From sequence record NZ_CP024587.1: 64,000 nt of DNA; one strand, 5' to 3'. Positions 2,278 through 58,987 of this stretch are shown piece by piece. Position 1 is the first letter of the stretch. Every line of letters starts with the position of its first letter. The position numbers were made by a program, and so were the translations under genes. The DNA comes from a plasmid. The notes under the pieces were generated by a model. That model was not told the origin of the DNA, did no database searches, and worked only from the letters and a program-made list of their open reading frames with translations.

Positions 2278-2522
2278 GCCAGCCTCCGGCGGCGCCAGGC
2301 CGGAACAGCGGGCCGCAGCCGGCCAACCAGCCATCGCCGCAACACCCGCAGCAGTGCCGGGACGGTCAGCCCGAAGAAGCTGATAATCCCGAAGAACGCC
2401 GTGCCGGCGAGGGCGATATAGAGGGTGGTCCAGCTCCAGTAGACCACGAAGCACAGGACCGGGATGCAGGCCCGGGCATCCAGCATCAGGATCCGCACCG
2501 GCAGGGCCGTGTTGCGCCACAT
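2274..2522 (-). CDS. icmT: IcmT/TraK-like small inner-membrane T4BSS protein (about 82 aa)
   Basis: MWRNTALPVRILMLDARACIPVLCFVVYWSWTTLYIALAGTAFFGIISFFGLTVPALLRVLRRWL matches the IcmT pattern (WR...DARA.FP, two TM helices). Start overlaps the dotB stop by ATGA. Confidence 0.55.
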   Translation of the reverse strand: MWRNTALPVRILMLDARACIPVLCFVVYWSWTTLYIALAGTAFFGIISFFGLTVPALLRVLRRWLVGRLRPAVPAWRRRRLA

Positions 2523-3706
2523 CAGCCGATCTCCTTGAGCGCGCGGGCGGCGACGGTCTCGGTGATCCGGCCCTGGCCAAGCGCGTGATGAATGGAAGCC
2601 CGGAAGCTCTGCCCGTCGGTCTCCAGGACCTCTCCGGTGATGAGCGGCCACTCGCCGGGATCGGCGCGCAGCAGGCGGGTGCGTAGGGCGGAATCGAAGG
2701 GGAGGAACTCGCGGATCGCGGTCCGCCTGCCGTCGGCGGAGGGCAGCAGCCTTTGGTTGACCACGAGGCGCAGCGACTGCGCGACCGAGGCCACCAGGTT
2801 GTCGCGCTCGTCGCGCGGGCAGAGCGTGGTGATCCGTTGCATGGTCAGCGGCACGTTATCGGCGTGGATCGTGGTGGTCAGGGCATGGCCGGAGATGGCG
2901 GCATGGACCGAGGCGGCCATGGTGGCGCTGTCGCGGCATTCGCCCACGATGATGTCGGTGGGCTCGCGGCGCATGCAGCCTCGGATGAAGGCGTCGAAGC
3001 TGGGCAGGTCACGTGGCACCTCGGTCTGCGCCATGGTCGAGTTGACGGTCGGGAAGCGGTCGAGCAGAAACTCGATGGGCGCCGCCGCCTCCTGGATGTT
3101 GTAGTGCCCATCCGGGTCGGCCAGCTTGGCCACCGTCATGCCGGCGATCAGGGTGGACTTGCCCGAGCCGGTCCCGCCCGAGACGATCACCATGCCGCGC
3201 TCCGGGAAGCAGGCGGCGAGGATGCCCGGCTCGACCAGCTGCTCGGCGAGCGAGGGCGGCAGATCCGGGATCGGCCGCAGCACGATATTGGCCCCCTCGC
3301 GCCGGGCCGCGCGGATCGGGGTGGCGTTGAGCCGGAAACGCAGACGGCGGGATCGGGATAGGCCGACCTCGTAGCTGACGTCGAAGTCGGCGCCGCCCTG
3401 CAGGCGGGCGGTCCCATCGGCGCCGTAGAGGTGGTTGGTGATGTCGCCGAGCTCGACCTCGCTCAGATTGCCGCGCGTCGCCCGGTGGTTGCGGCCGTGG
3501 ATACGGACCCAGACCGGATGGCCGGTCTGGAACGCGATGCGGGACGCCCCGGCCTCGTAAGCCCAGACCAGCAGCGTATCGAGGCCTGACGCCTGCTTGC
3601 GCGGCTCCACCACCCAGCGCTGGCCCTCGCCGGGCCAGAGGTGTGGGTCGCGCGCCGAGACGGGTTCATTCCCGGGTTCGGGCGAGACCGGCGGGACAAG
3701 GTTCAC
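2522..3706 (-). CDS. dotB: DotB/TraJ PilT-family secretion ATPase of type IVB systems
   Basis: Walker A GGTGSGKST, PilT/VirB11 core (...IVGECRD...TTIHA...), DotB-like N-domain (LDTLLVWAYEAGASRIAFQTG). GTG start at 3706 overlapping the dotC stop (GTGA). The longer ORF-track N-terminus is rejected. Confidence 0.85.
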   Translation of the reverse strand: MNLVPPVSPEPGNEPVSARDPHLWPGEGQRWVVEPRKQASGLDTLLVWAYEAGASRIAFQTGHPVWVRIHGRNHRATRGNLSEVELGDITNHLYGADGTARLQGGADFDVSYEVGLSRSRRLRFRLNATPIRAARREGANIVLRPIPDLPPSLAEQLVEPGILAACFPERGMVIVSGGTGSGKSTLIAGMTVAKLADPDGHYNIQEAAAPIEFLLDRFPTVNSTMAQTEVPRDLPSFDAFIRGCMRREPTDIIVGECRDSATMAASVHAAISGHALTTTIHADNVPLTMQRITTLCPRDERDNLVASVAQSLRLVVNQRLLPSADGRRTAIREFLPFDSALRTRLLRADPGEWPLITGEVLETDGQSFRASIHHALGQGRITETVAARALKEIG

Positions 3707-4680
3707 CGGCAGCCCGCCCCCGGCTGCCAGCGCCGGATGTTGGCCTGAAGGCCGGGCTGGTCGGTGATCCGCACCACGCGGTCGCCGATGCTCAACCGCG
3801 CCCGGCCGCCCTCGGTGTTGCGGGTCTCGAAGACCACCCGGGGCTCCTCGACCAGACCCGCGCGCAGCAGCACCCGGTAGCGGGCCATGCCCACGATGTC
3901 GCGCTGCAGGCGTCCGAGATCGGACAGGAAGATCGTCACCGCCTGCTTCTCGCCCTGCGCCCAACCCTCGGCGACGCCACGGTTCCAGTAGGTGACCTCC
4001 TGGCGGGTGCGCGGCAGCGCCGCGTCGGCCGGCCGGGCCGGGCTGCCCCAGGACCGGACCAGGTAGGAGCGCCAGTCCGGTGGCGCCGAGGTCAGCTGCG
4101 CCTCACGCGTGATCTCGAAGATGCAGCTCGTCTCGCGGGCGACCTGGCCGTTCTTGCCCAGGGCAAAGGCCAGCTGCGCCTCGGAGACGATGGGGGGGCG
4201 CATCAGGGTCTGGCCACCCCCCACCGGCAGAACCAGGGGGCGGAAGTCGTAGGTCCCCGAGAGCTGCGCCTCATAGCGCCGCAGCATCTCGTTGATGGCG
4301 AAGGAGCGGGCGGCCAGCCCGCCCTGGGCGCCGTAGGTCATGGCGGCCTGCCGCAGCACCTCGGCGCGGCCGGTCTCCAGCCCGTCGCCGGGCAGGTCGC
4401 CCGGACGGGTAGCCTGCAGCGCCTCCAGCGAAGGCGGCGCGTCGCCCCCCTCCACCACCGGCAGGGTGCCGGCACCCGTGATCGGCTGGTTCAGCTGACT
4501 GGCCAGCGCCTGGGCGGCGGCGTCGTATTGCGCCTCGCCCGGCATGGGCGGGCTGGACAGGAAGCGGACCGAGCCTTCCGCCCGGGCGGCGGGCGCGCAG
4601 GCTGGCGAGAGGGCCAGGGCCACGAGGGCCGTCGCGGCGAGGAGGACGCCGCGCGAGGTGGCGGGGCGGCGCTCAGACAC
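3703..4680 (-). CDS. dotC: DotC/TraI-like T4BSS outer-membrane lipoprotein
   Basis: Lipoprotein signal (LLAATALVALALSPAC), size about 325 aa, position between dotD and dotB as in dot/icm and IncI tra loci. GTG start at 4680. The upstream 65 aa of the ORF overlap dotD. Confidence 0.6.
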   Translation of the reverse strand: MSERRPATSRGVLLAATALVALALSPACAPAARAEGSVRFLSSPPMPGEAQYDAAAQALASQLNQPITGAGTLPVVEGGDAPPSLEALQATRPGDLPGDGLETGRAEVLRQAAMTYGAQGGLAARSFAINEMLRRYEAQLSGTYDFRPLVLPVGGGQTLMRPPIVSEAQLAFALGKNGQVARETSCIFEITREAQLTSAPPDWRSYLVRSWGSPARPADAALPRTRQEVTYWNRGVAEGWAQGEKQAVTIFLSDLGRLQRDIVGMARYRVLLRAGLVEEPRVVFETRNTEGGRARLSIGDRVVRITDQPGLQANIRRWQPGAGCR

Positions 4681-5155
4681 GATGCACCACCTGGACCGTG
4701 CGGGAAGCCGGATCGAGCTGGACCGTGGCGTAGGCCCCGGCCTGCTCTCCCAGCGCCGCGAAGGCGTCGACCACCGTCGTCGCGGGCAGGTTGACCGTGA
4801 CGGGCACGGGCTGAGGCCGCTCCACGCCCTCGACGCTGGACACCACCACGCGATAACCGACCACGTCGGCAAGCGTCCGTACTCCTTCGGCGAGTGGGCC
4901 GCTCCAGGTGAAGGCGATCGGCCGCTGCAACTCCTCCGGCACCACCTGGCCGCGCCGCGCCGAGAGGTCGGCCCGGCTTACGCCGCCAAGCTGGGATAGC
5001 TGCCGGCCGACCTGCTCCATGGACTGCCGGAGCGCGATCTCCGGGTTGGGCATGCCGGGGGTTGCAATCTCCGTGGTGGGCCCCCCCGTCGCGCAACCCG
5101 CGAGGCCGACCAGTCCGATCAATGCCGGCACCAGCCGGGTGTTCATCCTCGCCAT
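4673..5155 (-). CDS. dotD: DotD/TraH-like T4BSS lipoprotein
   Basis: MARMNTRLVPALIGLVGLAGC lipobox, about 160 aa, secretin-N0-like small lipoprotein immediately upstream of dotC. Confidence 0.6.
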   Translation of the reverse strand: MARMNTRLVPALIGLVGLAGCATGGPTTEIATPGMPNPEIALRQSMEQVGRQLSQLGGVSRADLSARRGQVVPEELQRPIAFTWSGPLAEGVRTLADVVGYRVVVSSVEGVERPQPVPVTVNLPATTVVDAFAALGEQAGAYATVQLDPASRTVQVVHRV

Positions 5156-8200: not shown

Positions 8201-8351
8201 TGCCATCGAGGCGAATGACGCTGAGGTAGTCGCATTGCCGGGTGACCAGCGCGTCACCATGCGCGGTCTCGATCGTGCAGTAGGCACTCAGCGGCTGCCG
8301 CAAGGACAGGGACAGTCCGGCGAGCGCGCGCGTAATGGCGGTGGCGATCAT
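5283..8351 (-). CDS. icmB: IcmB/DotO (TraU-like) VirB4-analog ATPase of type IVB systems, 1022 aa
   Basis: Length matches IcmB (about 1000 aa). Walker A FIAPPGSGKSVLANCI. Start overlaps the icmJ stop. Confidence 0.85.
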   Translation of the reverse strand: MIATAITRALAGLSLSLRQPLSAYCTIETAHGDALVTRQCDYLSVIRLDGMRRMARRDDVARIATAQRMDLSGALEERGHAIVGWYVSDPEMAGVEIDRLNLASCRTIARELGLDVSDVLDERAALWPRIMRWEAAYYVLWTRRAVLTKEERRQMAEEQATLSREGPRSGHSQRYYLRSEVMAARHTAFVSRVVAALQNNDVASHELNAHEALRVIREAVYRETAGSDWKATLPGDRVMPRASEDPDGGESAAPGMLWPAVADQLFHADAETLSGQRVRIGDHDYAHVDMAVGPEDPRPFVELSARLGKDGIPWRAAFAVEGGGRNAMQVKEIAATFFSMFPGNADIRRAFEALRQARNDDGHIGVRLRASFATWAPTGETRLLRRRASTLAQRVEGWGNCKATAVAGDPLEGALSSVPGLALTSTGTPQIALLGDAFAMLPWNRTASPWEQGSVLFRRPDGAIWPYDPSGGDKRPLVCDVFIAPPGSGKSVLANCINLGLVLSPAVLGTKGAKLPLIGKADIGPSAQGFVRLIREALGPGREHEAIFVTMQFGHGYEVNIFDLQVGCHYPLPLERSFLQNFLALATTPPDTSTPFEGMAQLIGAVIDEAYRLCTDVTGGSPKPYRAGVEPEVDAALLHHGIDLGSDEPWWRDAVDALVAVGEMRLAEVAQRHAVPVLQDLIAAARSDQIRDAFKDLHIAETSESACTLFERYVYDLIRRFPSLSKPTRLDFGPARIIVLDLAAVAPSGSAAANRQTELMYMLARHLLARNFFLHPDYAEMVPEPVRDFHRERMREAMEAVKRLDYDEWHRTKGSPLVRAQAELDVREGRKHNIQLGFSSQRLEDIGEAIVAQSTGRFILRTGDEREREEVITRFDLSAASADVVRYSLNGPGPNGAPFLAVLLAGGAKYEQMLVNSLGPVELWALSTTPGDTSLRNRLYAAVGFSEALRRLARVFDRGSAVKEIERRKNERLKRGELDTRAEAGVVDELAAELIDGKGLGIVLRDVAGAAASPSSRLLAAE

Positions 8352-9013
8352 GCGGCCTCCGTTCGGCTTGCCTGCCGGGCCGGCGGCTCGGCCCAGGCAC
8401 GCAGCAGCTCCGGGTAGATGTCCTTGTCATCCCGCATCAGGCGCCCGAGGGGGAGCAGGCGGACGCCTTGCAGCAGCGTGCTGCGGTTGACGTAGGCGTG
8501 CGCGGTGAGGCCGAGCAGCGCGCCCCCCAGGGTTCCGGGATCGGTGGTGCGAAGCCGCCGCTCGCAGGCCGCCTCGCGGGCACGCAGCGTGCTCAGGGCG
8601 CGCCAGGCCGCCACGATGACCGGGCTGTTCTGGCGAGGCAGAGTGTCGAGGGCCGGATCCTCACCCGCGGCGAGGAGCGCCAGATGGGCACTCCGCGTGA
8701 TGGCAAAGATCGCCTGCTGCGGCATCTCCGGCAGCCAGATCAGGGTGGCCGCGCGCTCGGCCGAGGCCACGTCCAGATGTTGCGTCAGGTGGCAGAGGGT
8801 GCAGGCCCAGGCGAGGTTGCCGGCCGCGTCGTTGGCGTGGTCGCCGTTCAGGTGAAAGGCCTCCTGCCGGCCCGTGGCGTAGGCGCCACAGAACCGGCAG
8901 GGGGCGGCGTGGGCGGGGGAGACAGGGGACGCCTCCCGCCGGCCTGCTCCGAGAGCCCCGCCCCAGGCGGAGGGATGGGACGAGAGTGGCAGCGACGGGA
9001 GGCGCATCATCAA
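8348..9013 (-). CDS. icmJ: IcmJ/DotN-like cysteine-rich zinc-binding T4BSS protein
   Basis: About 215 aa with CRFCGAY...ACTLCH cysteine motifs, located immediately upstream of icmB as in dot/icm loci. Confidence 0.65.
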   Translation of the reverse strand: MMMRLPSLPLSSHPSAWGGALGAGRREASPVSPAHAAPCRFCGAYATGRQEAFHLNGDHANDAAGNLAWACTLCHLTQHLDVASAERAATLIWLPEMPQQAIFAITRSAHLALLAAGEDPALDTLPRQNSPVIVAAWRALSTLRAREAACERRLRTTDPGTLGGALLGLTAHAYVNRSTLLQGVRLLPLGRLMRDDKDIYPELLRAWAEPPARQASRTEAA

Positions 9014-10111: not shown

Positions 10112-11701
10112 CTACTGGATGTTGCCGCGCTCGGTCCGCACCACCCAGGTCGCGCCCTGCTGCGCGATCGCGGTGATGCGGCCGTAGCCCGGCACCTGGT
10201 CGCCAACGGCGACCTGAAGCTGCACGCCGGACTCGCTGCTGTTGTCCACCTCGGACAGCATGGCAAGGCCCGGCGAGGCCGCCTGGACACGATAGCGGCG
10301 ACGCACGTCGTCGGCGCGCGGCGCGGCGACGGCCGTGCGCGGGGCGGCGGGGGCGACACTGGGCGCGCCGCGTGCCACGGCTGGCACAGCAACGGCCGGC
10401 GGCTCCGCACCACCCATCGCCACGGCCACGGCGCCACGTGCCTCGGCCAGGGCCACCCGCCGGGACAGGTCGGCGACCGACTCCTCGATCCGCCCCCGCG
10501 CGGCCGCCATGTCGGCACGCAGCTGACGGTTCTCCTCGCGCAGATCACGGACCATGGTGCCGATCGCAGTCACCAGTCCGAGGACCTCGACCTGCTGCGG
10601 CGTCGACATCGGCGCGGGCCGCAGATGTGCCGCGATCGCGCCCGGATCGGGCGTGGCGCCTTGCGAGGTATTGCCCGCAGGCACCGGAACGGGGTTGACC
10701 GCCACGGGCGGCGGCATGGCGATGCCTCCGGCAACGGGGGCAGTGGCTGACGCCGAAGCAGGGCGTGGTGCCTCGGGAGCCGACGCGCCGGGTGGATTGC
10801 CTGGGACGGCGGAGGCCGGTGGCAGGCCGATGGGGGCCGGCACGGTGGCCGGGGGCGGCCCTTCCGGTCTTGCAGCGGCCAGGGGCGGGGTGGCCGGCAT
10901 GGCGGCCATGGCAGTCCCGCTCCCCTCTGGCGACGAGGCGCCTGCCGATGCCGGTGCCGGTGTCGGTGCCGGGCTGGCGGGCACGGCTGCCATGGCATGA
11001 GGTGCGGACGGCGCGGCCGCGGCTGTGGCCGACGGGGACGCTGCCGCCCGTGCGGCACCCGCCTCGGCGTCCGCCCGCTGCGGTGTCTCGCCCAGGCGCC
11101 GGGCGAGCGGCACCGGCTCGGTCACGCGGGCAGCCGGGTGGGCCGGAGGGGTCTGGAAGCCGATGATCTCCTGCATCTGTTCCTCGACCGGCTGACGGGC
11201 CGGTGTCTCCCGCTGCACCGGCGGCACCGGCACCGGATCGGGCGCCGTCGCGATCCGCGCGGCCGGGGCGATCAGCTCCGGTGCGCGCTGGGCCGGCATG
11301 ATGGCCTGGCGCGCCGTCTCGACCGCGCCGCGCAGCCTGGTCGCGGTTCCACCGAGGTCGAGCGGATAGACCGTGTTGTAGGGCGAGATCATGAAGGCGC
11401 CGCCCGCCGCCAGCAGCACAACGCCGAGGGCAACCCCGGCCATCAGGCGTGTCCGGCGCCGCTCTCGGCCGGTGGCCAAGGTATCCGGCCCGGGCTGGGG
11501 AAGCGTGGCTGCGACCCCCTCCGTCTCCGGGAGCAGATCGGCGCCGCCATCGTCCGACCGCTCATCAGGCAATGTGGAGGTCCGAGGACGAAGGCCAGGG
11601 TCGATGACGAGGTGGTGGGTGTCCATGGAGAGATCCTGTGGGGATGCGGCCCACAGGATCGGACGACCCGACGCGAATGGCGCGGGTCGTGAGCGCCTCA
11701 A
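10112..11701 (-). CDS. dotF: DotF/IcmG-like bitopic protein with an expanded Pro/Ala-rich linker
   Basis: N-terminal TM (LMAGVALGVVLLAAGGAFMI), very long PA-rich low-complexity segment, coiled-coil (LREENRQLRADMAAARGRIEE), conserved C-terminal domain. ATG overlaps the dotG stop (ATGA). Confidence 0.5.
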   Translation of the reverse strand: MRRSRPAPFASGRPILWAASPQDLSMDTHHLVIDPGLRPRTSTLPDERSDDGGADLLPETEGVAATLPQPGPDTLATGRERRRTRLMAGVALGVVLLAAGGAFMISPYNTVYPLDLGGTATRLRGAVETARQAIMPAQRAPELIAPAARIATAPDPVPVPPVQRETPARQPVEEQMQEIIGFQTPPAHPAARVTEPVPLARRLGETPQRADAEAGAARAAASPSATAAAAPSAPHAMAAVPASPAPTPAPASAGASSPEGSGTAMAAMPATPPLAAARPEGPPPATVPAPIGLPPASAVPGNPPGASAPEAPRPASASATAPVAGGIAMPPPVAVNPVPVPAGNTSQGATPDPGAIAAHLRPAPMSTPQQVEVLGLVTAIGTMVRDLREENRQLRADMAAARGRIEESVADLSRRVALAEARGAVAVAMGGAEPPAVAVPAVARGAPSVAPAAPRTAVAAPRADDVRRRYRVQAASPGLAMLSEVDNSSESGVQLQVAVGDQVPGYGRITAIAQQGATWVVRTERGNIQ

Positions 11702-13065
11702 TCCTCGGCGCGCAGATCGTTCAGGAACATGATGCCAACTGGCGCATTGGCCGCGAGGTGAATGGTGGGGCCACGCGGGGCGGCCTGCTGCAGGGCGCGG
11801 CCGACCTGCTGCGCGGCGACACCGGCTCCGACCGCGAGTTGCTGCTCCGGGTTCAGGCGGGTGATGACTGAGGCGCCACCCAGCGGGCCAAGCTGCGTGT
11901 AGCTGTTCGAGGTGGTGGCCACCGCCTGCCCGATGCCCGCGATGAAGGCCGCGGCACCAGGCAGCACGAAGCGTTCCAGAACCCGCTGGTCGACGCTGGT
12001 GGCGACGGCCGTCTCCATGGTGTCGGGCGCCACGACGATGGCTTCGGCCTGGATCATCCGCCCCTGGAATTGCACGCGGTCGACACGCACCACGAGCCGG
12101 TTGCTCTGCCCGGCCGTGCTGAAGCTGCCGATCAGGCGCGCCCCCGCGAGCGGTCCGCTATCGGCCTGCAGCACGATGGGGCCGCCGGTCTCGGAGTTCA
12201 CCGCCAGCACGGTATGCGCGTAGAGGCCGCGACCGGCCGGCATCAGCAGGCGCCCCTGCCGGGACGTGGCAGTGCGGCCCTCACTGGCCGCCTCGGTCGC
12301 GTCCCGCGATGACCGGCCATCATCCGCCATCCGCCGTGCCAAAGGCGCCGCCGCGGCGGAACGTGGGCGGCCATCCGGGTCGGCCTCCCCCGCCGAGGCG
12401 GAGGAGGGCATGAGCGTCACCGTGGTTTGCGCCGGCCGCCCCTGCCAGCCGCCGAACAGGTTGTTCACCGCCGCCCGGAACGCCGGGTCGTCCGCCTGCG
12501 CCGAGGTCGTGCCGGTCTGCGCGACGGTGCGGATCGGGCCCTGCGGGCTCGCCGTGCTGGCCGGTGGCCCGGACGCGAACAGGACCGGCGGCGTGGCCGG
12601 CGCGTGTCTGGGCTGCTGTGCCGGAACCGGGGCCGCGAAAGGTGGCGAGGGCGGCGCCGTGGCCGCGGCTGGCGGCGCGGGAGGGGGCCCGACCGCGCTG
12701 GGCGGCGTCACCGGGTCCGGCAGTATCAGGCCCGTGGCCGGATTGCGCTGGCTCGCCGCGATCGGCGGGGTGAAGGACTGCCCAGCCTCCTGAGCGCGAG
12801 CCGCCTGCTGCTGGTTCGCGACGACCGCCAGCCGATCCTGGTATGGCGTGGAGTTGGTGCCACCGGGCAGGGTATTGACCAGTGGCTGCCGCGCGGTGCG
12901 ACTCTCCGGCGACACCGCCTTCTCGTGCATGGTGGCCCAGGCAATGGTCCCGATGAGGGCCACGGCAACCCCGGCGATGCCCGCGAGGCGCAACGGTCCG
13001 GCGGCCAGGGCACGGCTGAACGGGTTCCGAAAGCCCCTGCTGCGCCGGATGGCGGTGTCGGACAT
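11698..13065 (-). CDS. dotG: DotG/IcmE (TraO-like), VirB10/TrbI-domain protein, short form without pentapeptide repeats
   Basis: N-terminal TM, Pro-rich linker, C-terminal VirB10-like domain (...RLIGSFSTAGQSNRLVVRVDRVQFQGRMIQAEAIVVAPDT...). Sits between dotH and dotF. Confidence 0.7.
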   Translation of the reverse strand: MSDTAIRRSRGFRNPFSRALAAGPLRLAGIAGVAVALIGTIAWATMHEKAVSPESRTARQPLVNTLPGGTNSTPYQDRLAVVANQQQAARAQEAGQSFTPPIAASQRNPATGLILPDPVTPPSAVGPPPAPPAAATAPPSPPFAAPVPAQQPRHAPATPPVLFASGPPASTASPQGPIRTVAQTGTTSAQADDPAFRAAVNNLFGGWQGRPAQTTVTLMPSSASAGEADPDGRPRSAAAAPLARRMADDGRSSRDATEAASEGRTATSRQGRLLMPAGRGLYAHTVLAVNSETGGPIVLQADSGPLAGARLIGSFSTAGQSNRLVVRVDRVQFQGRMIQAEAIVVAPDTMETAVATSVDQRVLERFVLPGAAAFIAGIGQAVATTSNSYTQLGPLGGASVITRLNPEQQLAVGAGVAAQQVGRALQQAAPRGPTIHLAANAPVGIMFLNDLRAED

Positions 13066-14070
13066 CTAACGCTCCTCCCGCAGCTCGGCCGAAACCGTGC
13101 GGTTGTTGACCGAAAGCAGCACCACCGGCGTCTGCGGCAGCGCGTAGACCGTGGTGCCGCCCTCGCCGTACTGCGAGGCGTCCCAGGGCGGGGAGAGCAG
13201 CGTGTGGCTCGTGCGCAGATAGATCTGGTTGCCCAGGCGCCAGGCACGCACGGCATCGGGGGAGACGCCGCTGACGGCGAGCGGCACCGCATCGGCCGGC
13301 GCCACGCCTGACAGCATGGCGGTCAGGTACGGAGCGCCGGTGACCGGCGCCCCGGGCCGTGTGTCGATCTGGATGCGGGCGTTCGGCCCACGGCTGGCCA
13401 CATGGATGCTCACATCCGCGTCGTAGCGCGCCTGGCCCGCCACCAGCAGGAAGGAGATCGGCTTGGGGGCGCCCTGGAGGTTGACGAGCAGCCCACCGCG
13501 CGGTGCCATCGACATGGGCGTGATCTGGATGGTGTTCGACCCGCGGACCGGAACACAGACATGAAAGCCCGCGAGCTCGGCCGCCGGCCCGCCGGGGCCA
13601 GCCGGCCCGGCATTGGGCGAGGTGGAGCAGCCGCCGACGCCAGCGCCTCCCCCACCGGAGACATTCGCGTTGTTGGAGTTGGTGTCCCAGGCGATGGGCC
13701 AGGGCTGGCCCGTGGCATCGAAGAAGCTGAGCGCCGTGGGGTAGCCACGGACGGTCTGCACGATCGAGGTCGGCTGGCCCGGCTGGAAGCCGACATTGAC
13801 GGGACGGCTGACCGGGGCGGCGATGATGGCCACGCTTTCCTCGCGTGCCCGCTGCACCTCGCCGAAACGGCGTGCGAGCTCGCGGATCATCTCCGGCGTG
13901 AGCGGGATCGCGTCCTCCAGGATGCGATCCCGGGTTGCGGCGCGGTCTGCCGGCGTGGATGCCGGCTGTGGCGGCGCCTGGGCGGACGCCGAGGCGCTCA
14001 TCAGGGCCATGGCGAGGAGAGCCAGGGTTGCGGGGCAGGCTTGCACGGCGAGGGCTCCTGTTCCGGTCAT
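13066..14070 (-). CDS. dotH: DotH/IcmK (TraN-like), VirB9-like outer-membrane core component
   Basis: Signal peptide, about 330 aa, beta-rich C-terminus, position between dotI and dotG. Confidence 0.65.
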   Translation of the reverse strand: MTGTGALAVQACPATLALLAMALMSASASAQAPPQPASTPADRAATRDRILEDAIPLTPEMIRELARRFGEVQRAREESVAIIAAPVSRPVNVGFQPGQPTSIVQTVRGYPTALSFFDATGQPWPIAWDTNSNNANVSGGGGAGVGGCSTSPNAGPAGPGGPAAELAGFHVCVPVRGSNTIQITPMSMAPRGGLLVNLQGAPKPISFLLVAGQARYDADVSIHVASRGPNARIQIDTRPGAPVTGAPYLTAMLSGVAPADAVPLAVSGVSPDAVRAWRLGNQIYLRTSHTLLSPPWDASQYGEGGTTVYALPQTPVVLLSVNNRTVSAELREER

Positions 14071-14696
14071 CGGGCAATCGCGACCAACTGGTCGATCACC
14101 AGGCCGTCCGGACGATCCTCGTCATTGGTGCGAACCACCATCGCCGAGATCACCAGGTTGTTGGTGCTGGTCTGCTGCGAATTCTCGCAGGTCTGCATGA
14201 CCGGGAACTGGATGTTGTAGGTCAGCCGGCCACTGCTGATCCGCGTGTCCGCGATGGTGGCCGCACGCTGCGCCTGGGCGTAGCACACCATGCGGCCGCG
14301 CTTCATGGCCTCGAAGCTGCCGCCTGCCATGTAACTCTGCGCGAAGCTGTTCCAGCCCTGGATCGAGAAGCGGCGTCCGGCCGTGTTCAGCTGGGTCGGA
14401 TAGTCGTGATAGTTGACGTTGTAGGCCGCGAGGACGGCGCGCACCGTCCATTCCAGCAGCTGCGTGTCGTCCACCACCGGGCTTTCCAGTGCCCGGATCG
14501 GCCGCGGTGGATTACGACCATCGACGAGGAAGTAGCGTGTCTCGCTGGGGCGTGTCTGAAGCCAGTAGGAGTGAGCGAGTGCCGCGACGGTGACGGTCGC
14601 CATGGCGACGCAGAGCATCGTGAGCCGGTTCACCAGGCGGCCCTGGAACTCGGGATCGCTCAGCCTGTTGCTCACGGCCGCGCGGGCATTCTGCAT
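14067..14696 (-). CDS. dotI: DotI/IcmL (TraM-like), VirB8-like bitopic protein
   Basis: 209 aa (Legionella IcmL is 212 aa), single N-terminal TM (LTMLCVAMATVTVAALA), 4-nt overlap with dotH. Confidence 0.65.
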   Translation of the reverse strand: MQNARAAVSNRLSDPEFQGRLVNRLTMLCVAMATVTVAALAHSYWLQTRPSETRYFLVDGRNPPRPIRALESPVVDDTQLLEWTVRAVLAAYNVNYHDYPTQLNTAGRRFSIQGWNSFAQSYMAGGSFEAMKRGRMVCYAQAQRAATIADTRISSGRLTYNIQFPVMQTCENSQQTSTNNLVISAMVVRTNDEDRPDGLVIDQLVAIAR

Positions 14697-17087: not shown

Positions 17088-17546
17088 ATGCCCGATCTTG
17101 AGCGACAAGCCGTGCTGGATTGGTTGAGGCTCGCCGAGCCGGCCACAACGAGCCTCGGCGCCGGACTGGTCCGGCCCATCGAGGTGGCCGAGACCGTGGA
17201 GCCGCTGCTGGTCGGTCTCGGCCAGCAGCTGGATGGCTACTCCGACCCTCCCTCCGCCGTGAGCCTCCTGGCGGCCGGGGATCTGGCGCCGCTACGCGAG
17301 GTGCTCGCCCAACTCGGCATCGCCCGCCTCCTGCGGCTGCTCACCTGGCTCGATGCCGCCGGCACCACTCCGGAGAGTGGGCTTCCGGATGCCCTGCTGC
17401 GCGATGACAGCACCGAGGCGGGACTGGCCCTGCGGGCCACGCTGGCAACCTTGCACCGCCAGACATTGCTCGACCGGCTCTTCGCGCCCGAGCGGCTGGA
17501 GCACCTCACCGCCCTGCTGGACGAGATCCGCCAGGAGGCCGCGTGA
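17088..17546 (+). CDS. Acidic 152-aa hypothetical protein (size and charge reminiscent of IcmW/IcmS-type adaptors)
   Basis: High GC3, D/E-rich, no TM. Overlaps the next gene by ATGA. Confidence 0.35.
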   Translation: MPDLERQAVLDWLRLAEPATTSLGAGLVRPIEVAETVEPLLVGLGQQLDGYSDPPSAVSLLAAGDLAPLREVLAQLGIARLLRLLTWLDAAGTTPESGLPDALLRDDSTEAGLALRATLATLHRQTLLDRLFAPERLEHLTALLDEIRQEAA

Positions 17547-18070
17547 TGCGCTGCGTCAGGCTCGCCGCCGCCCTCGGGCTCGCCGTGGCACTCAACGCCC
17601 CCGCCTTCGCCCAGGTGCAATCCACCGGCTCCGTGGGTTGCGCCGCGCTCACCCAGGCCGCCGCCGGTGCCATCGAGGCCCGGGTCCAGGCCGACGACGC
17701 CGCCATTCCACAGCCCACCAGCGTCCGCAACCTGACCTGCCTCGACAGCTTCTTCAAAGGCGTCGGCCTGAGCGTGATCGCCTCGCTGCTCGACCCGGGC
17801 AGCCTGCTCGATGCCATCGAGGGCCAGATCTGCGCGACCGTGAGCCAGGCCTGGCAGTCCGCCCTCGGATCCGCGCAATGCGGCCTCACGATCTCGGGCT
17901 TCAACCTGGGCTTCGGCGGCCTCGGCGGCGGCTTGATGTGCCCGCGCCTGAGCTTCGGCGGCGGCGGGCCGCCGATCGGCACCTTCGGCACCGGGAACAA
18001 CACCACCGGCAGCCTCTACGTCAACGGCTCGCCGCTGGCACCCACCGGCTACACCCTGCCCGCACAATAG
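17543..18070 (+). CDS. Secreted Cys- and Gly-rich hypothetical protein (175 aa)
   Basis: Signal peptide MMRCVRLAAALGLAVALNAPAFAQ, five Cys, Gly-rich C-terminus. Confidence 0.45.
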   Translation: MMRCVRLAAALGLAVALNAPAFAQVQSTGSVGCAALTQAAAGAIEARVQADDAAIPQPTSVRNLTCLDSFFKGVGLSVIASLLDPGSLLDAIEGQICATVSQAWQSALGSAQCGLTISGFNLGFGGLGGGLMCPRLSFGGGGPPIGTFGTGNNTTGSLYVNGSPLAPTGYTLPAQ

Positions 18071-26880: not shown

Positions 26881-27434
26881 CCGCCCCTCGGCCAGAAGCC
26901 CTCGGCCGTGCGCAGATAGGCGCCGGCCGGGGCCAGCCGCCGCGTCCTCAGCTGCCAGTTCGCCCAGGCGTTGCGGAAGGCCAGCACGAAAAAGGCGGCG
27001 CAGAAGGGCAGGAACTGCAACGCCGCCCAGAACCGTCCGCCTCCGCCCGCCGGCATCGCCACCATCTGCCAGACCCACAGGAGCAGGGCGATCCAGCCCG
27101 CCGCGAAGCAGCCCCACGCGACCCGAGCCGTCTGCCGCCGCCTCTCCTTCCAGCGCTTCTCCAGCTCGAACTCGGTGATGCCCATGTTGAACGCCGTGGC
27201 CACCGGATCGAGATAGCCCCGCGCGTCGGCCACCGGCCCGCTCTGTCGTGCCGGTCCCCGCCGGATCGCGCCGCCCAGCCCGCGCAGCAGGCCATATCCC
27301 GAGCGGATCTCGCTGGCGCCAGCCATCTCGCCCGTGCGACGCGCCATCCAGAGAGGGCCGGCCGTCAGCCAGGCCAGCCGAGAGCGGCGGGCGGGCTTCT
27401 GGCCCGAAAGGCCGGGGCCGAGGTCAATGGCCAT
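26877..27434 (-). CDS. Membrane protein, hypothetical (possibly IcmV-like)
   Basis: Two adjacent TM helices (WGCFAAGWIALLLWVWQMVAM...FLPFCAAFFVLAF). 4-nt overlap with the downstream gene. Confidence 0.35.
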   Translation of the reverse strand: MAIDLGPGLSGQKPARRSRLAWLTAGPLWMARRTGEMAGASEIRSGYGLLRGLGGAIRRGPARQSGPVADARGYLDPVATAFNMGITEFELEKRWKERRRQTARVAWGCFAAGWIALLLWVWQMVAMPAGGGGRFWAALQFLPFCAAFFVLAFRNAWANWQLRTRRLAPAGAYLRTAEGFWPRGG

Positions 27435-27437
27435 GGC

Positions 27438-28640
27438 TCAGCCCGCCGTCGCCGAGGCGAGCACCGCCTCGATGTTGGTCGGCATCCCGTCCACCCGCCC
27501 TTCGGTCCCGTCCGCCTTGCGCCAGATCAGGGTGGGCGTGCCGCGCAGCGCGATCGCGGCCGCCGCGGCCGTGTTCTCCCGCAGGCGGGCCGGCGCCTCG
27601 GGGCTGGGCGCCGAGCGCAGGTCGCCCCGGCTCCACGCCGCGACCATCCCCTCCGCCGAATGGCTTAGCATCGCCAGAGCATCGGCCGTGCTGCGTCCGG
27701 CATTGGCGTGGTCGAGGATGGCGACCGGGATCACGGACAGCCGCAGGCGGCCGGCCGCGACCAGCGGCTGGAACCGCTGCAAGGCCTGCACGGAGTAGCC
27801 GCATTGCGGATCGACGAACATCCAGACATGCGGCGCGGCCTCGGCGCCGACCACCCCGGCATGCGCCCGCTGGGCCACCGCCAGGGGGCTGGCGGCAGCC
27901 GCACCGGATGCAGCGGCGGCGACGATGGGCACCGCAGCAGGCGGGGCCGGTGGTGCGCCAGCCGGCACGTCCCCGATCGTGACGGTCGGGATCGCTCCCT
28001 CGATGCCCGCGACGTGATCGCGGGTGAGGTTCCTGCCGGCCGCGTCCCACATGATCCCGGGGATCACCCGCTCGCCATCCGGGGTGGCGTAGAACACCTG
28101 AAAGGTGTCGCCGCTGCGCAACACCAGCCCACGCAGCCCCTCCCGCTCGCCCAGATCGGTCACGCTGGAACCGCCGGTCGCGCGCAGCCGGGCCAGGGTC
28201 AGGTCCATCGGGAAGCCCGCCACCATCGCCTGGCCGGAGGGCAGGACGGAGAGCAGCATGAACTCGGCGCCCGCGCGCGCCACCACCAGCCGGAGCCCGT
28301 GGTTGAGACCCATGTCCTCCAACGTGGCGCCTGCTTTGACGACCCGCTGAAGGACCGGCGCCGACAGGCCGGCACCGGTCGCGGCGGCAGTCCGCGTGGC
28401 ATCTGACGGAGCGGTGGGTACGGCCGCGGGCGATGCCACGGGCGCGGATGGGCGGGGCGTGGCGGCGCCATCGCCGGACGGCCAGGCTTGCGGCGTGGCT
28501 GGCATGGGCGCCGGCAGCGTGAAGGCCGGGGGTGGCGGCGGAGGCTGTCCGCTGCCGGCCTGCGGCGCGCACAGCGATTGCGCGAGGGCAAGGCCGGGAA
28601 GTCCCGCGCAGGCGCAGGTGGTCAGGAGGATGCGTCGCAT
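27438..28640 (-). CDS. DsbC/TrbB-like periplasmic thiol:disulfide isomerase homolog with monothiol CGYS active site
   Basis: Signal peptide, DsbC-like dimerisation region, thioredoxin-fold motif VWMFVDPQCGYSVQALQ (canonical ...CGYC...). Codons TGC GGC TAC TCC verified on the minus strand at 27803-27792. Confidence 0.7.
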   Translation of the reverse strand: MRRILLTTCACAGLPGLALAQSLCAPQAGSGQPPPPPPAFTLPAPMPATPQAWPSGDGAATPRPSAPVASPAAVPTAPSDATRTAAATGAGLSAPVLQRVVKAGATLEDMGLNHGLRLVVARAGAEFMLLSVLPSGQAMVAGFPMDLTLARLRATGGSSVTDLGEREGLRGLVLRSGDTFQVFYATPDGERVIPGIMWDAAGRNLTRDHVAGIEGAIPTVTIGDVPAGAPPAPPAAVPIVAAAASGAAAASPLAVAQRAHAGVVGAEAAPHVWMFVDPQCGYSVQALQRFQPLVAAGRLRLSVIPVAILDHANAGRSTADALAMLSHSAEGMVAAWSRGDLRSAPSPEAPARLRENTAAAAAIALRGTPTLIWRKADGTEGRVDGMPTNIEAVLASATAG

Positions 28641-30519: not shown

Positions 30520-31854
30520 TTGTGCGTTTCATGCGTTCCACTCAGGTCGATCGCTGGCTCGGTGCGCTGCCTGGTGGGAGATCATGAAATGGCGCGTGCG
30601 TTATTAAGGAACGTCTGGAAGAGAGCCGCCTGTCCCGCCACAGATCACGAAATCGTGACCGTCTACGGACGCGGATCAACCGCGCAGGAGGCGGTGCAGC
30701 GCTGCGACGACGCCCTTCGCCAGCAGACCCTGGCCGCACCCACCCTGTTGCTGGTGTTCATTGGAGGCAAGCACAATCCCGGCGCGATGCTCTCGACACT
30801 GAGGCAATACTTTCCGGGCGTGACGGTGGTGGGCGGATCGGCGGCTGGCGTCATCGGGGCCAGCGAACTCGGTTATAGCGGCCTGGAGGTGGGCATCGTC
30901 GCCTTCTTCAATGCCGCGACCACTCCCCGGGTCCACACCACCCATGCCCTGGAGGAGAGCGACTACGACGGCGGCCGGATGCTCGGCGCCGCCGCCCGCC
31001 GCGAGCACAACGACAGCTCGGTCGTTCTCCTGCTCTACGACAGCGTGCGCTCTTTCGAGCCGCGCGAGTTGCATGTCGCGGGCTCCGTCCTCGAGGGCTT
31101 CGAGAGTTGTTGGCGCGAGGATGGCTCGGTCGTCGGCGGCGGCCTGCTGACCGATCTCAACCTCACCGACAGCTGGATGCTGCTCGATGGCGCGGTCCAC
31201 CGGCATGCCGCCGCGGCCCTGGTGTTCCCGCCCTGCGTCACAGCCACGACCGTGGTACTCCGAGCCTGCCGTCCCGTGAGTACCTACATGACGATCACCC
31301 GCATCGGGGGCGCGGAGGTGTTCGAGCTCGACAACCGCCCCGCGCTCGAGGTCATCGAGGCGCGCATCGGCCAGCCCCTCATCGACGCCGCGGGCCACCC
31401 CAACCGTATCATGACGCTCGGCGAGAAGCTGGACGATCCCTGGGAGGACGGCGGGCCCGACGACTATGTCAACCGCCTGATCCTGACCGGCAACCGAGAC
31501 ACCGGCAGCATCACCCTGTTCGAGCCCGACTTCGCCGAGGGCGCCATGGTGCAGCTCATGCAGAACGACAACGAGCTCATGCTGGCAGCGGCCCGCGACG
31601 GTGCCGTTGCCGCGATGCGGGCTGGCGCGGATGCCGGCGAGGCGATCCTGCGCCTCTACATCGACTGTGCCGGCCGGGCCAGCGTGATGAGCGGCACCGA
31701 CGAGGAGGAGGCCAGCGTGGTGACGAAGACACTGATCGACCGGGTGCCCTTCATGGGCTTCTACTCCGGCGTCGAGATCGCCCCGATCCGCCAACGCAGC
31801 CAACCCCTGGATTGGACTGGCGTCCTGACGACGCTGAAGGTGCAGCGGCCGTGA
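30520..31854 (+). CDS. FIST-domain signal-transduction sensor protein (FIST_N + FIST_C); true start possibly at 30589
   Basis: ...TVYGRGSTAQEAVQRCDDALRQQTLAAPTLLLVFIGGKHN... (FIST N) and ...VPFMGFYSGVEIAPI... (FIST C). Confidence 0.75.
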   Translation: MCVSCVPLRSIAGSVRCLVGDHEMARALLRNVWKRAACPATDHEIVTVYGRGSTAQEAVQRCDDALRQQTLAAPTLLLVFIGGKHNPGAMLSTLRQYFPGVTVVGGSAAGVIGASELGYSGLEVGIVAFFNAATTPRVHTTHALEESDYDGGRMLGAAARREHNDSSVVLLLYDSVRSFEPRELHVAGSVLEGFESCWREDGSVVGGGLLTDLNLTDSWMLLDGAVHRHAAAALVFPPCVTATTVVLRACRPVSTYMTITRIGGAEVFELDNRPALEVIEARIGQPLIDAAGHPNRIMTLGEKLDDPWEDGGPDDYVNRLILTGNRDTGSITLFEPDFAEGAMVQLMQNDNELMLAAARDGAVAAMRAGADAGEAILRLYIDCAGRASVMSGTDEEEASVVTKTLIDRVPFMGFYSGVEIAPIRQRSQPLDWTGVLTTLKVQRP

Positions 31855-39334: not shown

Positions 39335-41111
39335 ACGCCGCCTGAATCGTGGTTCTCCCGCATTTCCCGTGCTGTCGTTTTGTCATGCAGCGTTCAGCAC
39401 GCGGTTGCGGAGCAGATCGAACCCGGCACGGCCATACATGCTCCGCTTGATCAGCTTGAGCCGGTTGATCTGCCCTTCGACGGGGCTCGTGGTCCAGGGC
39501 AAGTCAAGTGCGGCCTGCACGGCATCGATGTCGCGGCACAGGTTGGCGGCATAGGATGCGAGTTCGGTCTTCTCCGCCGCGGCGAGCACCTCCGCGAGCG
39601 TCTCGCCTCCCTTGCGGCGCAGCACCTGGCGCAGCCGTCTTGCGACCGCGATCGCGGCGGCCAATCCGGGCGCTTCGGCCAGCATCCGCGCGGCAAACTG
39701 TCGCTCGGTCTCCTTTAGCGTGTTGCTGTCCGCCATCAGAATGCGCGCGACGCTGCGGCCCGAGGGCACCGGCCATGCCGGTGCCATTCGTGTGGGACGG
39801 GGCGCGGTCGGCGCTGGCTCGGTGCCACGGCGCCGGGTGGTCCAGGCGCGGACGGTGCCGGGCCGCCCAGCGAAACCCTGCGCAACCAGTTCGCGCCAGA
39901 GCTGGGCTGCGTTGCGGCAGCCCTCGGCCCAACGCCGGTCCAGCACGTCTGCAAAGGCCGCGAGGGTGCTGGTGCGCGGCCGCTGCTTCCAGGATGGGGC
40001 GTGCCCGAGGCGGAGCCAGCGGCGGACCGTCTTGCGCTCGGCCCCGAGGCGGGCGGCGATGCGGCTGATCGAAACCCCTTTGGCGCGCAGCCCTGCGGCT
40101 TCCTCGTAGCGCGCCTGCCTGCGGGCCAATGAGGCCTGGCTCGCCCGTGCCGCAGCGTTCGGCGGACGCGGTGGGGCGGGCGGCATCGGCTCGGCTGCAA
40201 TAGCGGCCGCCACCGTGTCCGCGATAAGCCGTCCCGCACGGCGCACGGCAGCAGCGTGCCGGTCGACAAGCGCGGGCACGGCATCACCGAGGTTGCGCAG
40301 CAAATGCCATCGATCCGCGACCTGGACCGCAGCAGGAGCACCCTGCCGGATCCCGTCCGCGTAGGCGCCGGCGCGATCACGCGCGACAACTTCGACGCCA
40401 GGATGGCGGCGCAGCCAGGTCGCGAGTGTTTCAGCTTGGCGATCGCGCAGCAGATCGACCACGGCGTTGCGCTCCAGGTCGACCAGCATCGTGCCGTAGC
40501 GGTGCCCCCGACGCCAGGACCAGTCATCCACACCGAGCACGCGCGGGGCTGGTAGTGGGTCATCGCGGCACGCAGCCGCACGCACAACACGCAGCAGCGT
40601 ATCGGCGCTGGTCGGCATGGCGAGCCTGTACGCCAGCCGCGCCCCGGCCTCTCCGCCGAGCGCGAGGCCGAGGCAGCGCTGCACCCCGCCCAGCCGTTCG
40701 GTCCGGCGCGCCGCAGCCGGTGCCACCTCGGCCAGGCGCTCGGCGAAGGTCTGGCGGGCGCAGGCCGAGTTGAGGCAGCGAAATCGCCGCGCGTGGACCG
40801 CCAGTGTCACCGGACGACCCTGCCAAGGCAGGTCGGCAAGGGTTCGACCGTAGCGGCTGTGCACGCGCCGCGAAGCCACGCCGCAGTCGGGACAGGCAGC
40901 GGCGTTCTGGCGCGGGCTCGCCTTGATGGTGATGTGCTCAGAGGTGGGCAGGACCTGCTGAACCAACAGTCCCGCCGGGATCAGGGGCAGGAGGCGCTTG
41001 GGCAAGGGAGACTTTCAAAGGAGGGCAGTGTTCCTCCTATGTGCTCATCCCGACCCAGAACGCCTACCCAGCAGCACGGGAAATGCGGGAGAACCACGAT
41101 TCAGGCGGCGT
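39335..41111 (-). mobile_element. ISL3-family insertion sequence, copy 1 (about 1777 bp), tnp 39383..41005 (540 aa)
   Basis: Terminal IRs acgccgcctgaatcgtggttctcccgcatttcccgtgctg (perfect). Transposase with zf-ISL3-like N-terminus (CPDCG...RFRC..C) and DDE domain. Identical to copy 2. Confidence 0.8.
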
Positions 41112-57206: not shown

Positions 57207-58987
57207 AACTGGGGAATTTTACGGTTCTCCCGCACTTTCCGTGCTGCTGTTTCGGTATCACGCGGCGTGCAGGACGCGGGTGCGGAGGAGATCAAAGCCT
57301 GCTCGGCCGTACATGGTCCGCTTGATCATCTTGATGCGGCTGATCTGTCCTTCGACCGGGCTCGTCGTCCAGGGCAGATCGAGGGCGGCCTGGATGGCGT
57401 CCTGGTCGCGGCGCAGCCCGGCGGCGAAGTTCTTGAGCGGTGTTTCGTCGGCAGCGGCGAGCACGGCAGGTAGGGTGTCACCCGTCTCGTGGCGCAAGAG
57501 ACGCTGCAGCCGCTTAGCCACGGTGATCGCCTCGGCCAATCGGGGCGCCTCCTTGAGCAGGTGACCGACGAACAAGTTCTCGTCTGCCGACAGTCTGGTC
57601 TCGTCGGCCATGAGCATGCAGCCGATCCGGCGAATGGTCAGCCCTGCCCAGGCCTTGGCTCCTGCTCGTTGCTCGGTGGCGGAAGGATCCGGCTGTTCCC
57701 GGCGGCGACCGGTGGCCCAGCGGCGCACAAGACCGGGGCGCCCTGTGAAGCCCCGCCCGATCAACTCGCGCCAGAGCTGAGCGGCGTTGCGGCAGCCCTC
57801 ATTCCAGCGGCCTTCGAGATACGCGACATGGACATCCAGCCCGCTGCCGCGCCGCGGCTTGCGCCACGACGGGGCATGGCCAAGCGACAGCCAGCGCCGC
57901 ACGGTCTTGCGCTCGGCATCGAGCAAGCTGGCGATGCGGCTGATCGACAGGCCCTTGCCGTGAAGGTCGGCTGCCTCGTCGTACCGTGCCTGGCGGCGGT
58001 GAAGTGAGGCTTGGCTCGCCCGCTGCGCCGCGTTCGGTGGATGGGACAGAGGCGGCGGCACGCCCGGTAAGGGCTCGCCCTGGGCTTGCGTCTCGGCGGT
58101 CCGCTGTGCCGCCCGACCGGTGGCGTTGCCGTGCCGTTCCACGAGGGCCCGGACCGCATCTCCGAGGTTGCGCAGCAGGTGCCAGCGATCCGCTACCTGG
58201 ATTGCACCGGGCGCGCCCTGCCGGACCCCGTCCGCGTAAGCGCCCGCCCGGTCTCGGGCCACGATCTCCACGCCAGGGTGCTGGCGCAGCCACGCCGCCA
58301 GGGTCTCCGCTTGGCGGTCGGGCAGCAAGTCGACGGCGCGATTGCGCTCTAGGTCGACCAGCGCCGTGCCGTAGTGATGGCCTCGGCGCCAAGCCCAGTC
58401 GTCCACCCCGAGCACCCGGGGCGTCGCTGCCGGCATGGCGTCCCGGCCCTCCGCGCGGGTGATCCGCAGCAACGTGTCCGGGCTGGTCGCCATGGCTAGA
58501 CGCTCGATCAGGCGCGCGCCGGCCTTGTCCCCGAGCGCCAGGCCTACACAGCGCTGCAGATCGCCCAGTCGCCGGGTCCGCCGTGCCCCGGCGGCCGCAA
58601 CCTCCGGGAGCCGCTCGGCGAAGGTCTGCCGGGTACAGGTCGGGTCGAGGCAGCGGAACCGCCGTGCCTGGAGACGCAGCGTCACAGGGCGGCCCTGCCA
58701 TGGCAGATCAGCGAGGCGGCGTTGGTAGTGGCTGTGAACGCGCCGTGACGACGTGCCGCAAGCTGGGCAGGTGGCGGCCTCGGGAGGTAGCGTGGCGGCG
58801 ATGATGATGTGATCGGAAGCGGGCAGGACCTGCTGAACCAGCAGCCCCGCTGGAAGCAGAGGCAGGAGACGCTTGGACAATCCCAGCTTTCAGAGAGAGG
58901 AACGACGCCCCTCCAATGTGATCATCCCACCCCGGAACGACGAGCCACAGCACGGAAAGTGCGGGAGAACCACGATTCAGGCGGCGT
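57207..58987 (-). mobile_element. ISL3-family insertion sequence, copy 3 (diverged relative of copies 1/2), tnp 57258..58880 (540 aa)
   Basis: Same architecture and length; protein about 65% identical by eye. Right IR ...ccacgattcaggcggcgttgaca identical to copy 1; left IR diverged (ggaattttacggttctcccgcac). Confidence 0.75.

Follow-up and report, generated by a model that had tools for sequence, protein, structure and literature searches.

We analyzed a 64,000-nucleotide stretch of plasmid record NZ_CP024587.1 (one strand, 68% G+C; hereafter the window). On its minus strand, in a cluster of type IVB secretion system (T4BSS) genes, lies a gene for a 400-aa protein that resembles the periplasmic protein DsbG and carries the active-site tetrad Cys-Gly-Tyr-Ser, that is, a C-x-x-S (CxxS) motif in place of the C-x-x-C (CxxC) motif of DsbG (Table 1). 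The open reading frame (ORF) begins with ATG and has a coding-type GC pattern, with a G+C fraction of 0.87 at third codon positions (GC3). The 8 kb around the gene share 92.5% identity with plasmid unnamed2 of Roseomonas mucosa AD1, and we found an identical copy of the 400-aa protein on 12 contigs.

Using the NCBIfam model for DsbG (NF008657), we obtained a score of 85.6 bits (E = 3e-24) against a cutoff of 124; with a score under the threshold, the protein is classed by this model as a DsbG homolog and not as an equivalog. Pfam matches to DSBA, DsbC_N and Thioredoxin_2 were all sub-threshold. A HMMER search of PDB sequences returned E. coli DsbG entries only, with DPQCGYS of the query aligned to DPFCPYC of DsbG, and a profile built from 120 family members matched DsbG residues 79-221 (E = 4e-12), aligning G-T-P-T of the family to the V-T-P-A cis-proline loop of DsbG. 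The AlphaFold2 model, based on the family alignment, is confident at residues 95-215 and 250-400 (predicted local distance difference test score, pLDDT, mostly >90) and disordered at residues 1-90 and 220-246. When the model was compared with the PDB using Foldseek, DsbG was the top match (E = 6.5e-13), followed by DsbP, DsbC and ScsC. Because the sequence searches, the family profile, the AlphaFold2 model and Foldseek agree, we consider it nearly certain that the protein is a DsbG/DsbC-fold homolog whose nearest family is DsbG. The first-pass annotation of the window had described a DsbC/TrbB-like periplasmic protein of the thioredoxin fold, with a CxxS site, next to the T4BSS, and the DsbG matches, the model and the neighboring T4BSS genes support a periplasmic DsbC/DsbG-fold protein with a natural CxxS site whose gene lies inside the cluster; its gene call stands, and the clade-wide CxxS site, the duplicated dimerization module and the DotA/IcmX-like synteny described below go beyond it.

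The tetrad C280-G-Y-S283 sits within VWMFVDPQCGYSVQALQ, and the plus strand across its four codons reads ggagtagccgca. On re-reading, the serine codon that had been assigned to positions 27792-27794 and the residue number S283 were both exact. We took as closest homologs the best 120 proteins from a collection of 5.8 billion proteins. At 43% to 100% identity to the query, all of them (120/120) have C-x-x-S, in the form of CGYS (41 sequences), CSFS (31), CSYS (18), CIYS (14) and other variants. Plasmid homologs at 35-41% identity also retain CxxS, as CMYS in Acetobacter pasteurianus and CPFS in Gluconobacter oxydans pGOX1. The motif is further present in 87/87 copies from related loci and the window; the contig scan that yielded these loci used peptide patterns containing CxxS, so the scan documents synteny and not motif frequency and does not by itself argue for an absence of CxxC forms. 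Unbiased evidence on the motif comes from an index-free hidden Markov model search of 1.84 billion cluster representatives, which gave 1476 matches at E ≤ 1e-3. Among the 150 of these matches that were listed, all those above ~125 bits that cover the active site are C-x-x-S except one (P0157), which has G-R-G after the cysteine, near the protein end, and CxxC proteins (CPWC, CPYC, CPFC) start at 124.9 bits and lower.

Across 82 distinct nucleotide contexts, the serine is encoded by TCG (50), TCC (23), TCA (7) or TCT (2), and the cysteine by TGC (73) or TGT (9). The serine codon varies synonymously while the amino acid is constant, which points to purifying selection acting on the serine. In the alignment of the 120 sequences, the columns without variation include D277, C280, S283, G367-T368-P369-T370 and W373. 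Based on these comparisons among sequences, it is nearly certain that CxxS is the fixed state across the clade. A check for sequencing error at the serine codon had been proposed, and an error in sequencing or assembly, or a decaying pseudogene of a CxxC dsbG, can be dismissed, with no need to resequence: TCC and TGC lie one base apart and insertion sequence (IS) elements are inserted nearby, but the same protein occurs on the 12 contigs, CxxS is universal in homologs from independent assemblies and is written with all four TCN codons, and the ORF is intact with coding-type GC3. We also considered a monothiol-glutaredoxin-like CGFS Fe-S site and rejected it as a family feature, as the two middle residues of the tetrad vary freely (SF, SY, IY, VY, PF, MY and others).

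Based on a reading of the N-terminal sequence, the protein is predicted to be exported, with signal peptide cleavage between MRRILLTTCACAGLPGLALA and QS; the basic-hydrophobic-AxA pattern at the N-terminus is kept across 105 full-length homologs. A cysteine in the N-terminal tail beyond this site, Cys24 in the query, is present in 89/105 full-length members (85%), and the tail and active-site cysteines are the only cysteines of the protein outside the signal peptide. In the remaining 16/105, mainly from Methylocystis/Methylosinus, the active-site cysteine is the sole cysteine outside the signal peptide. Cys24 was rejected as a lipoprotein cysteine, as the residues that precede the tail cysteine (QSL-C, AQQ-C, AST-C) form no lipobox and an AxA cleavage site lies upstream. 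In many homologs the tail cysteine stands in the context AEPQC or ADPQC, a sequence similar to the D-P-x-C around the active site.

The tether that follows has a mean pLDDT of 40-56 per 10-residue block and is variable in sequence and length in the alignment. Beyond it lie two copies of a DsbC_N-like module, which hhalign matched to each other with a probability of 99% (E = 9.7e-18); each copy is modeled as four strands plus a helix, copy 1 with pLDDT >94. The DsbC dimerization-domain pattern noted earlier is present in copy 2, in which PF10411 (DsbC_N) matches residues 181-206 below its gathering score (E = 0.0016). This copy also aligns to DsbG residues 25-65, with the segment GLRG..FQVFYATPDGERVIPGIMWDAAGRNL matching the DsbG dimerization domain, and it holds an invariant or near-invariant block, FQVFYATPDG...IPG.MWD. 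Copy 1 is absent from shorter members, such as the Gluconobacter pGOX1 protein, which keep copy 2. We infer that the two modules may pair inside a single chain, which would make the protein a one-armed pseudo-dimer. The linker between copy 2 and the catalytic domain differs in length between homologs and has pLDDT <50 at residues 220-246.

For the catalytic domain, the fold prediction upholds the thioredoxin assignment, with pLDDT of 87-98 and a beta-alpha-beta...beta-beta-alpha order of elements. After strand 2, the CxxS clade carries a 4-5 residue insertion, D-x-x-x-x-G-x-S-T (window 27690-27725, residues ~306-317). D310, G315, S317 and T318 are near-invariant, and neither E. coli DsbG nor the CxxC relatives have the insertion; the D310-T318 insertion might be a compensation for the missing cysteine. 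Existing annotations of the family are uneven. Several homologs are annotated merely as “hypothetical protein,” and for the R. mucosa AD1 homolog (L001, 12343-13221) the RefSeq start lies ~110 codons too late, which cuts off the conserved signal peptide and the tail cysteine together with some of the first module.

Table 1. Features of the T4BSS cluster and of the DsbG-like gene and its product, by position in the window
Feature	Position	Strand	Basis or remark
TraI/DotC-type lipoprotein (PF16932) and T2SSE-family ATPase	2522-4872		
TrbI-domain (PF03743) protein	11698-13065		DotG/IcmE/VirB10 position of related plasmids
DotH	13066-14070		
DotI	14067-14696		
IcmW-like adaptor gene	17088-17546	+	PF23130 (IcmW), E = 1.8e-10; marks the cluster as a T4BSS
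175-aa secreted protein, five invariant cysteines, Gly-rich C-terminus	17543-18070	+	Candidate client
TraW/IcmX-like secreted protein; C133, C192 and C202 conserved	18089-19279	+	NF033888 (conj_TraW), E = 9e-8, below cutoff
DotA/TraY gene	23648-26059	+	TIGR04346, E = 1.2e-120; true start probably downstream of TTG
105-aa putative lipoprotein, convergent gene	26563-26880	+	LAAC lipobox, Cys20
185-aa small membrane protein gene	26877-27434	-	Starts 3 nt past the DsbG-like stop codon
Monothiol DsbG-like coding sequence, 400 aa, ATG start	27438-28640	-	ORF list; stop codon 27438-27440
Thioredoxin-fold catalytic domain, residues 250-400	27441-27893	-	Model, DsbG alignment, Foldseek
Presumed cis-proline loop, G367-T368-P369-T370	27531-27542	-	Invariant in family
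Active-site tetrad C280-G-Y-S283 (TGC GGC TAC TCC)	27792-27803	-	Sequence; aligns to DsbG CPYC
Low-complexity Pro/Ala linker, residues 215-249	27894-27998	-	Replaces the DsbC/DsbG linker helix
DsbC_N-like module, copy 2, residues 157-214	27999-28172	-	PF10411, DsbG alignment
DsbC_N-like module, copy 1, residues 93-156	28173-28364	-	hhalign, AlphaFold2 model
Pro/Ala-rich disordered tether, residues 25-92	28365-28568	-	pLDDT, alignment
Cys24 codon, A-[ED]-P-x-C type context	28569-28571	-	3-4 residues past the predicted cleavage site
Predicted signal peptide, ~residues 1-21	28578-28640	-	Sequence reading

By both sequence and fold, the best match to the protein is E. coli DsbG (PDB 1V57), a periplasmic sulfenic-acid reductase and weak isomerase. 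The two proteins have in common a thioredoxin domain that contains a helical insert, an active site set in DP-x-C-x-[YF], a Thr-Pro cis-proline loop, an N-terminal module of the DsbC_N type and a periplasmic location. The query differs from DsbG in having CxxS instead of CPYC, a doubled N-terminal module, a disordered Pro/Ala linker without a linker helix, a ~70-residue N-terminal tether with an extra cysteine and the 4-5 residue insertion; in addition, its gene lies in a T4BSS cluster, whereas DsbG is encoded by a chromosomal housekeeping gene.

The nearest relatives outside the CxxS clade are DsbG-like CxxC proteins from metagenomes, at 21-31% identity to the query. On a 415-kb contig, the gene for one of them (P0258, CPYC) neighbors dotI, dotH and a TrbI-domain (DotG-like) gene; the contigs of four other CxxC relatives are too short to show T4BSS proximity. 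These proteins share with the CxxS family a single DsbC_N-like module, the linker, the thioredoxin domain and the G-T-P loop; however, they keep the resolving cysteine and have neither a second N-terminal module nor the tail cysteine nor the D..G.ST insertion. Because the nearest CxxC relatives include a T4BSS-linked gene, the CxxS clade appears to be a monothiol branch derived from a T4BSS-linked, DsbG-like lineage.

The gene order around the DsbG-like gene is itself conserved. The small membrane protein gene lies directly downstream on the same strand in 74/77 loci for which 1 kb or more is available on that side, and a DotA homolog occurs within 10 kb in 55/59 loci with at least 6 kb downstream. 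The DsbG-like and membrane protein genes form a pair that is convergent with the lipoprotein gene and dotA/traY; the 105-aa lipoprotein is kept in 75 loci, and its single lipobox cysteine is invariant. This arrangement is common to plasmids of Roseomonas, Methylosinus, Acetobacter and Gluconobacter (five annotated plasmids) and to long metagenomic contigs. Judged by gene order, the DsbG-like gene belongs to the conserved layout of an alphaproteobacterial conjugative T4BSS cluster of the mating-pair formation type I (MPF-I). The CxxS gene and DotA block was also found on contigs assigned to Terriglobus/Acidobacteriaceae (L021, OZ241387.1; L023; L028; L051), one of which is a 165-kb plasmid record. 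Their presence there is due either to a spread of the T4BSS plasmid lineage across phyla or to a binning error. For the 185-aa membrane protein, we make no firm identification as TraX: the IncI TraX model NF033887 matches weakly (E = 4.4e-5; 23 bits, cutoff 100), and R64 TraX gave no significant BLASTP match.

Three neighboring gene products have conserved cysteines that bear on the choice of candidate clients. In 47/48 homologs of the 175-aa protein at 17543, for which no Pfam or NCBIfam match was found, the number of cysteines past residue 25 is exactly five; the 175-aa protein had been suggested earlier as a Cys-rich substrate, and its five invariant cysteines, an odd number, are in keeping with that suggestion. 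In the TraW/IcmX-like protein, exactly three cysteines are found beyond residue 25 in 50/51 homologs, and in DotA the periplasmic residues C217 and C266 are invariant (52/52 homologs). A protein with an odd number of cysteines must either keep a thiol free or form a disulfide with another molecule. Together, the eight cysteines of the 3-Cys and 5-Cys proteins leave room for one intermolecular and three intramolecular disulfides. When we compared the cysteine complement of the neighbors with loss of the tail cysteine or with the CxxS state, we found no covariation; the neighbors show the same 5-Cys and 3-Cys patterns throughout. The central pentameric protochannel in Legionella is built from IcmX (VirB5-like) and DotA (VirB6-like). 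Single cysteines are what DsbG acts on, reducing them when they are sulfenylated (PMC4624244). On this circumstantial evidence from sequence, the TraW/IcmX-like and 5-Cys proteins are reasonable candidates for clients.

The reading that we favor, and to which we would give an even chance, is that the protein is a DsbG-derived monothiol assembly factor dedicated to the T4BSS, which forms mixed disulfides with T4BSS subunits. Cys280 would attack a disulfide, or an oxidized free cysteine, of a periplasmic T4BSS subunit, the 3-Cys TraW/IcmX-like protein and the 5-Cys secreted protein being the best candidates. Because the second active-site cysteine is absent, the mixed disulfide would persist until a client cysteine, a cysteine of a partner subunit or an external thiol resolves it. 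By analogy with CxxS proteins that belong to the PDI (protein disulfide isomerase) family, such a monothiol isomerase or holdase would keep an unpaired client cysteine protected and assembly-competent; in most members, the tethered Cys24 may cap or prime Cys280. The first-pass annotation had proposed a monothiol chaperone or isomerase, or a trap for mixed disulfides, which is a reasonable reading. Its further statement that reductase recycling is closed to such a variant goes too far: 85% of the members carry a tail cysteine, and an external thiol can resolve the intermediate, as it does in thioredoxin-fold Cxx[ST] enzymes that follow the monothiol glutaredoxin mechanism (PMC2757866).

Several points weigh against a dedicated mixed-disulfide factor. 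A monothiol enzyme in the periplasm runs the risk of dead-end trapping. A role of Cys24 would not be general, because 15% of the members are without an N-terminal cysteine, and the linker is disordered in the model, so that a V-shaped cleft like that of DsbG would be hypothetical. The client assignment rests on adjacency and cysteine counts only; moreover, R64 TraW also has three non-lipid cysteines although R64 TrbB is a CxxC protein, and for this reason odd cysteine counts are not specific to the CxxS lineage.

A more detailed form of the mixed-disulfide mechanism, which is possible but which we hold only tentatively, is thiol-mediated assembly control of the ERp44 type in a bacterium. Natural CxxS “trapping” proteins exist in the PDI family (PMC11443168, PMC3699783, PMC13628048); ERp44 (CRFS), TMX5 and yeast Eug1 are one-cysteine thioredoxin-fold proteins, as proposed here for the query, and they either retain clients that have unpaired cysteines in mixed disulfides or only catalyze isomerization. 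They belong to an unrelated branch of the fold and to another compartment and other organisms, so the likeness would be one of mechanism only. Following this model, the monothiol DsbG would bind the VirB5-like TraW/IcmX subunit, the 5-Cys protein or both covalently, at the unpaired cysteine, until the partner cysteine arrives. Release might occur, for example, once the 3-Cys and 5-Cys proteins become joined by one intermolecular disulfide in the DotA-IcmX channel module, with the tethered N-terminal cysteine as a built-in leaving group and the duplicated dimerization module giving a single-armed pseudo-dimer.

The alternative that survives best, though we consider it unlikely, is that the protein has retained the job of DsbG and guards single cysteines against sulfenylation, or rescues them from it, as a catalytic monothiol enzyme and not as a holdase, recycled by an external reductant such as periplasmic glutathione or DsbD. 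DsbG is the closest family and has this known role, turnover of Cxx[ST] enzymes via an external thiol is well established, and the neighbors with conserved odd cysteine counts are plausible single-cysteine substrates. However, we found no linked reductant gene in the regions examined, and plain reductase turnover poorly explains a loss of the resolving cysteine that is fixed in ~120 sequence clusters.

It is rather improbable that the protein does no redox chemistry and serves the T4BSS as a structural subunit or chaperone, with Cys280 serving in packing or in a permanent structural link. The precedent is F TraF, a thioredoxin-fold protein without CXXC whose role is independent of redox chemistry (PMC11315126). 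TraF is a type IV secretion system assembly protein that, like the query, departs from CxxC; the synteny of the DsbG-like gene is as tight as expected of a core machine component, and its product's doubled N-terminal module and long tethers are suggestive of a scaffold. Proteins of the TraF type, however, have lost their active-site cysteines altogether, whereas in the query family the nucleophilic cysteine, along with the serine and the substrate-binding cis-proline loop, is invariant over 35-100% identity, which points to retained thiol chemistry.

Also quite improbable is a two-cysteine oxidoreductase in which the resolving cysteine has moved to the tail and the enzyme cycles via an intramolecular Cys24-Cys280 disulfide. 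The two cysteines are the only ones outside the signal peptide, and the high frequency of the tail cysteine and the ~70-residue disordered tether behind it fit such a cycle. Nevertheless, the 16/105 members without a second cysteine, mainly those of Methylocystis/Methylosinus, have kept both CxxS and the synteny, and the model does not place the tail near the active site.

Thioredoxin-fold accessory proteins are also encoded by other conjugative elements. DsbP, the isomerase of IncA/C plasmids and SXT integrative conjugative elements (PDB 4ML1/4ML6), is the second-best structural match to the query. Along with R27 DsbC, Rts1 Orf206 and F TrbB, it is an accessory protein that a conjugative element needs for efficient transfer, but these proteins have CxxC (PMC11315126), belong to MPF-F/H systems and not to T4BSSs, and show no close sequence kinship to the query. 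In F, R27, SXT and Rts1, the DsbC-like proteins have a part in transfer and retain CxxC (PMC10838148). In I-type transfer systems, the trbB gene is required for transfer of pCTX-M3 and for high transfer efficiency of R64 (PMC6112013), and TrbB of these IncI1/IncM plasmids may thus be compared with the query as a thioredoxin-like accessory with the same kind of role. The two differ in that R64 TrbB has a cytoplasmic N-terminal part, a membrane anchor (a hydrophobic segment near residues 100-120) and CPNC, within FAFLDPACPNC, and is without the DsbC_N module; furthermore, R64 trbB lies between trbA and trbC, whereas the query gene lies beside a possible traX and traY. We rejected homology to IncI TrbB, as BLASTP with R64 TrbB was not significant (E = 0.088) and the query had no NCBIfam TrbB match. 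At the level detectable by these searches, R64 TrbB is an analog and not a homolog, and with DsbG as the closest family, the label “TrbB-like” that had been given to the query holds as a functional analogy only.

To our knowledge, the clients of thioredoxin-like helpers of conjugation are mostly unknown, and all characterized redox-active helpers are CxxC proteins. Searching the literature for a natural CxxS family of DsbC/DsbG proteins or T4BSS accessories, we found no description of one. What is new here is a clade-wide, probably T4BSS-dedicated monothiol DsbG with a duplicated dimerization module; the chemistry is already known from eukaryotic CxxS PDIs. A trapping-type CxxS site is fixed in ~120 clusters at 50% identity that include plasmids of Roseomonas, acetic acid bacteria and methanotrophs, and this fixation across the whole clade suggests that single-cysteine chemistry is the selected function. 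The family would add a bacterial periplasmic member to the CxxS oxidative-folding factors, which have been documented mainly in the eukaryotic endoplasmic reticulum. The native protein could serve as a ready-made substrate trap for T4BSS subunits that depend on disulfides, with the DotA-IcmX channel module as the obvious place to seek clients; according to a recent finding, this module is what gates Dot/Icm secretion.

In the window, an IS5-type element (20798-23597) lies between a 477-aa gene (19292-20725) and dotA/traY (23648-26059). It contains a transposase ORF at 20833-21693 (PF13737 and PF01609) and a truncated second copy at 23205-23597, along with a perfect direct repeat that runs for 300 nt or more (20798-21097 and 23170-23469). 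The genes that flank this insertion are adjacent in the R. mucosa AD1 plasmid. The insertion may have uncoupled dotA from its operon, and this copy of the T4BSS may be impaired. Elsewhere in the window, two 540-aa ORFs (39383-41005 and 62091-63713) have identical composition statistics, the first with ISL3-family transposase domains, and a third 540-aa ORF (57258-58880) is possibly related to them, which suggests multiple IS copies. Within the T4BSS operon, a 221-aa ORF (8348-9013) has the CxxC pairs C39/C42 and C71/C74 and the look of a zinc ribbon, with no Pfam match. Just past the DsbG-like operon lies a gene for a FIST N/C-domain protein (30520-31854), which is conserved in the R. mucosa plasmid.

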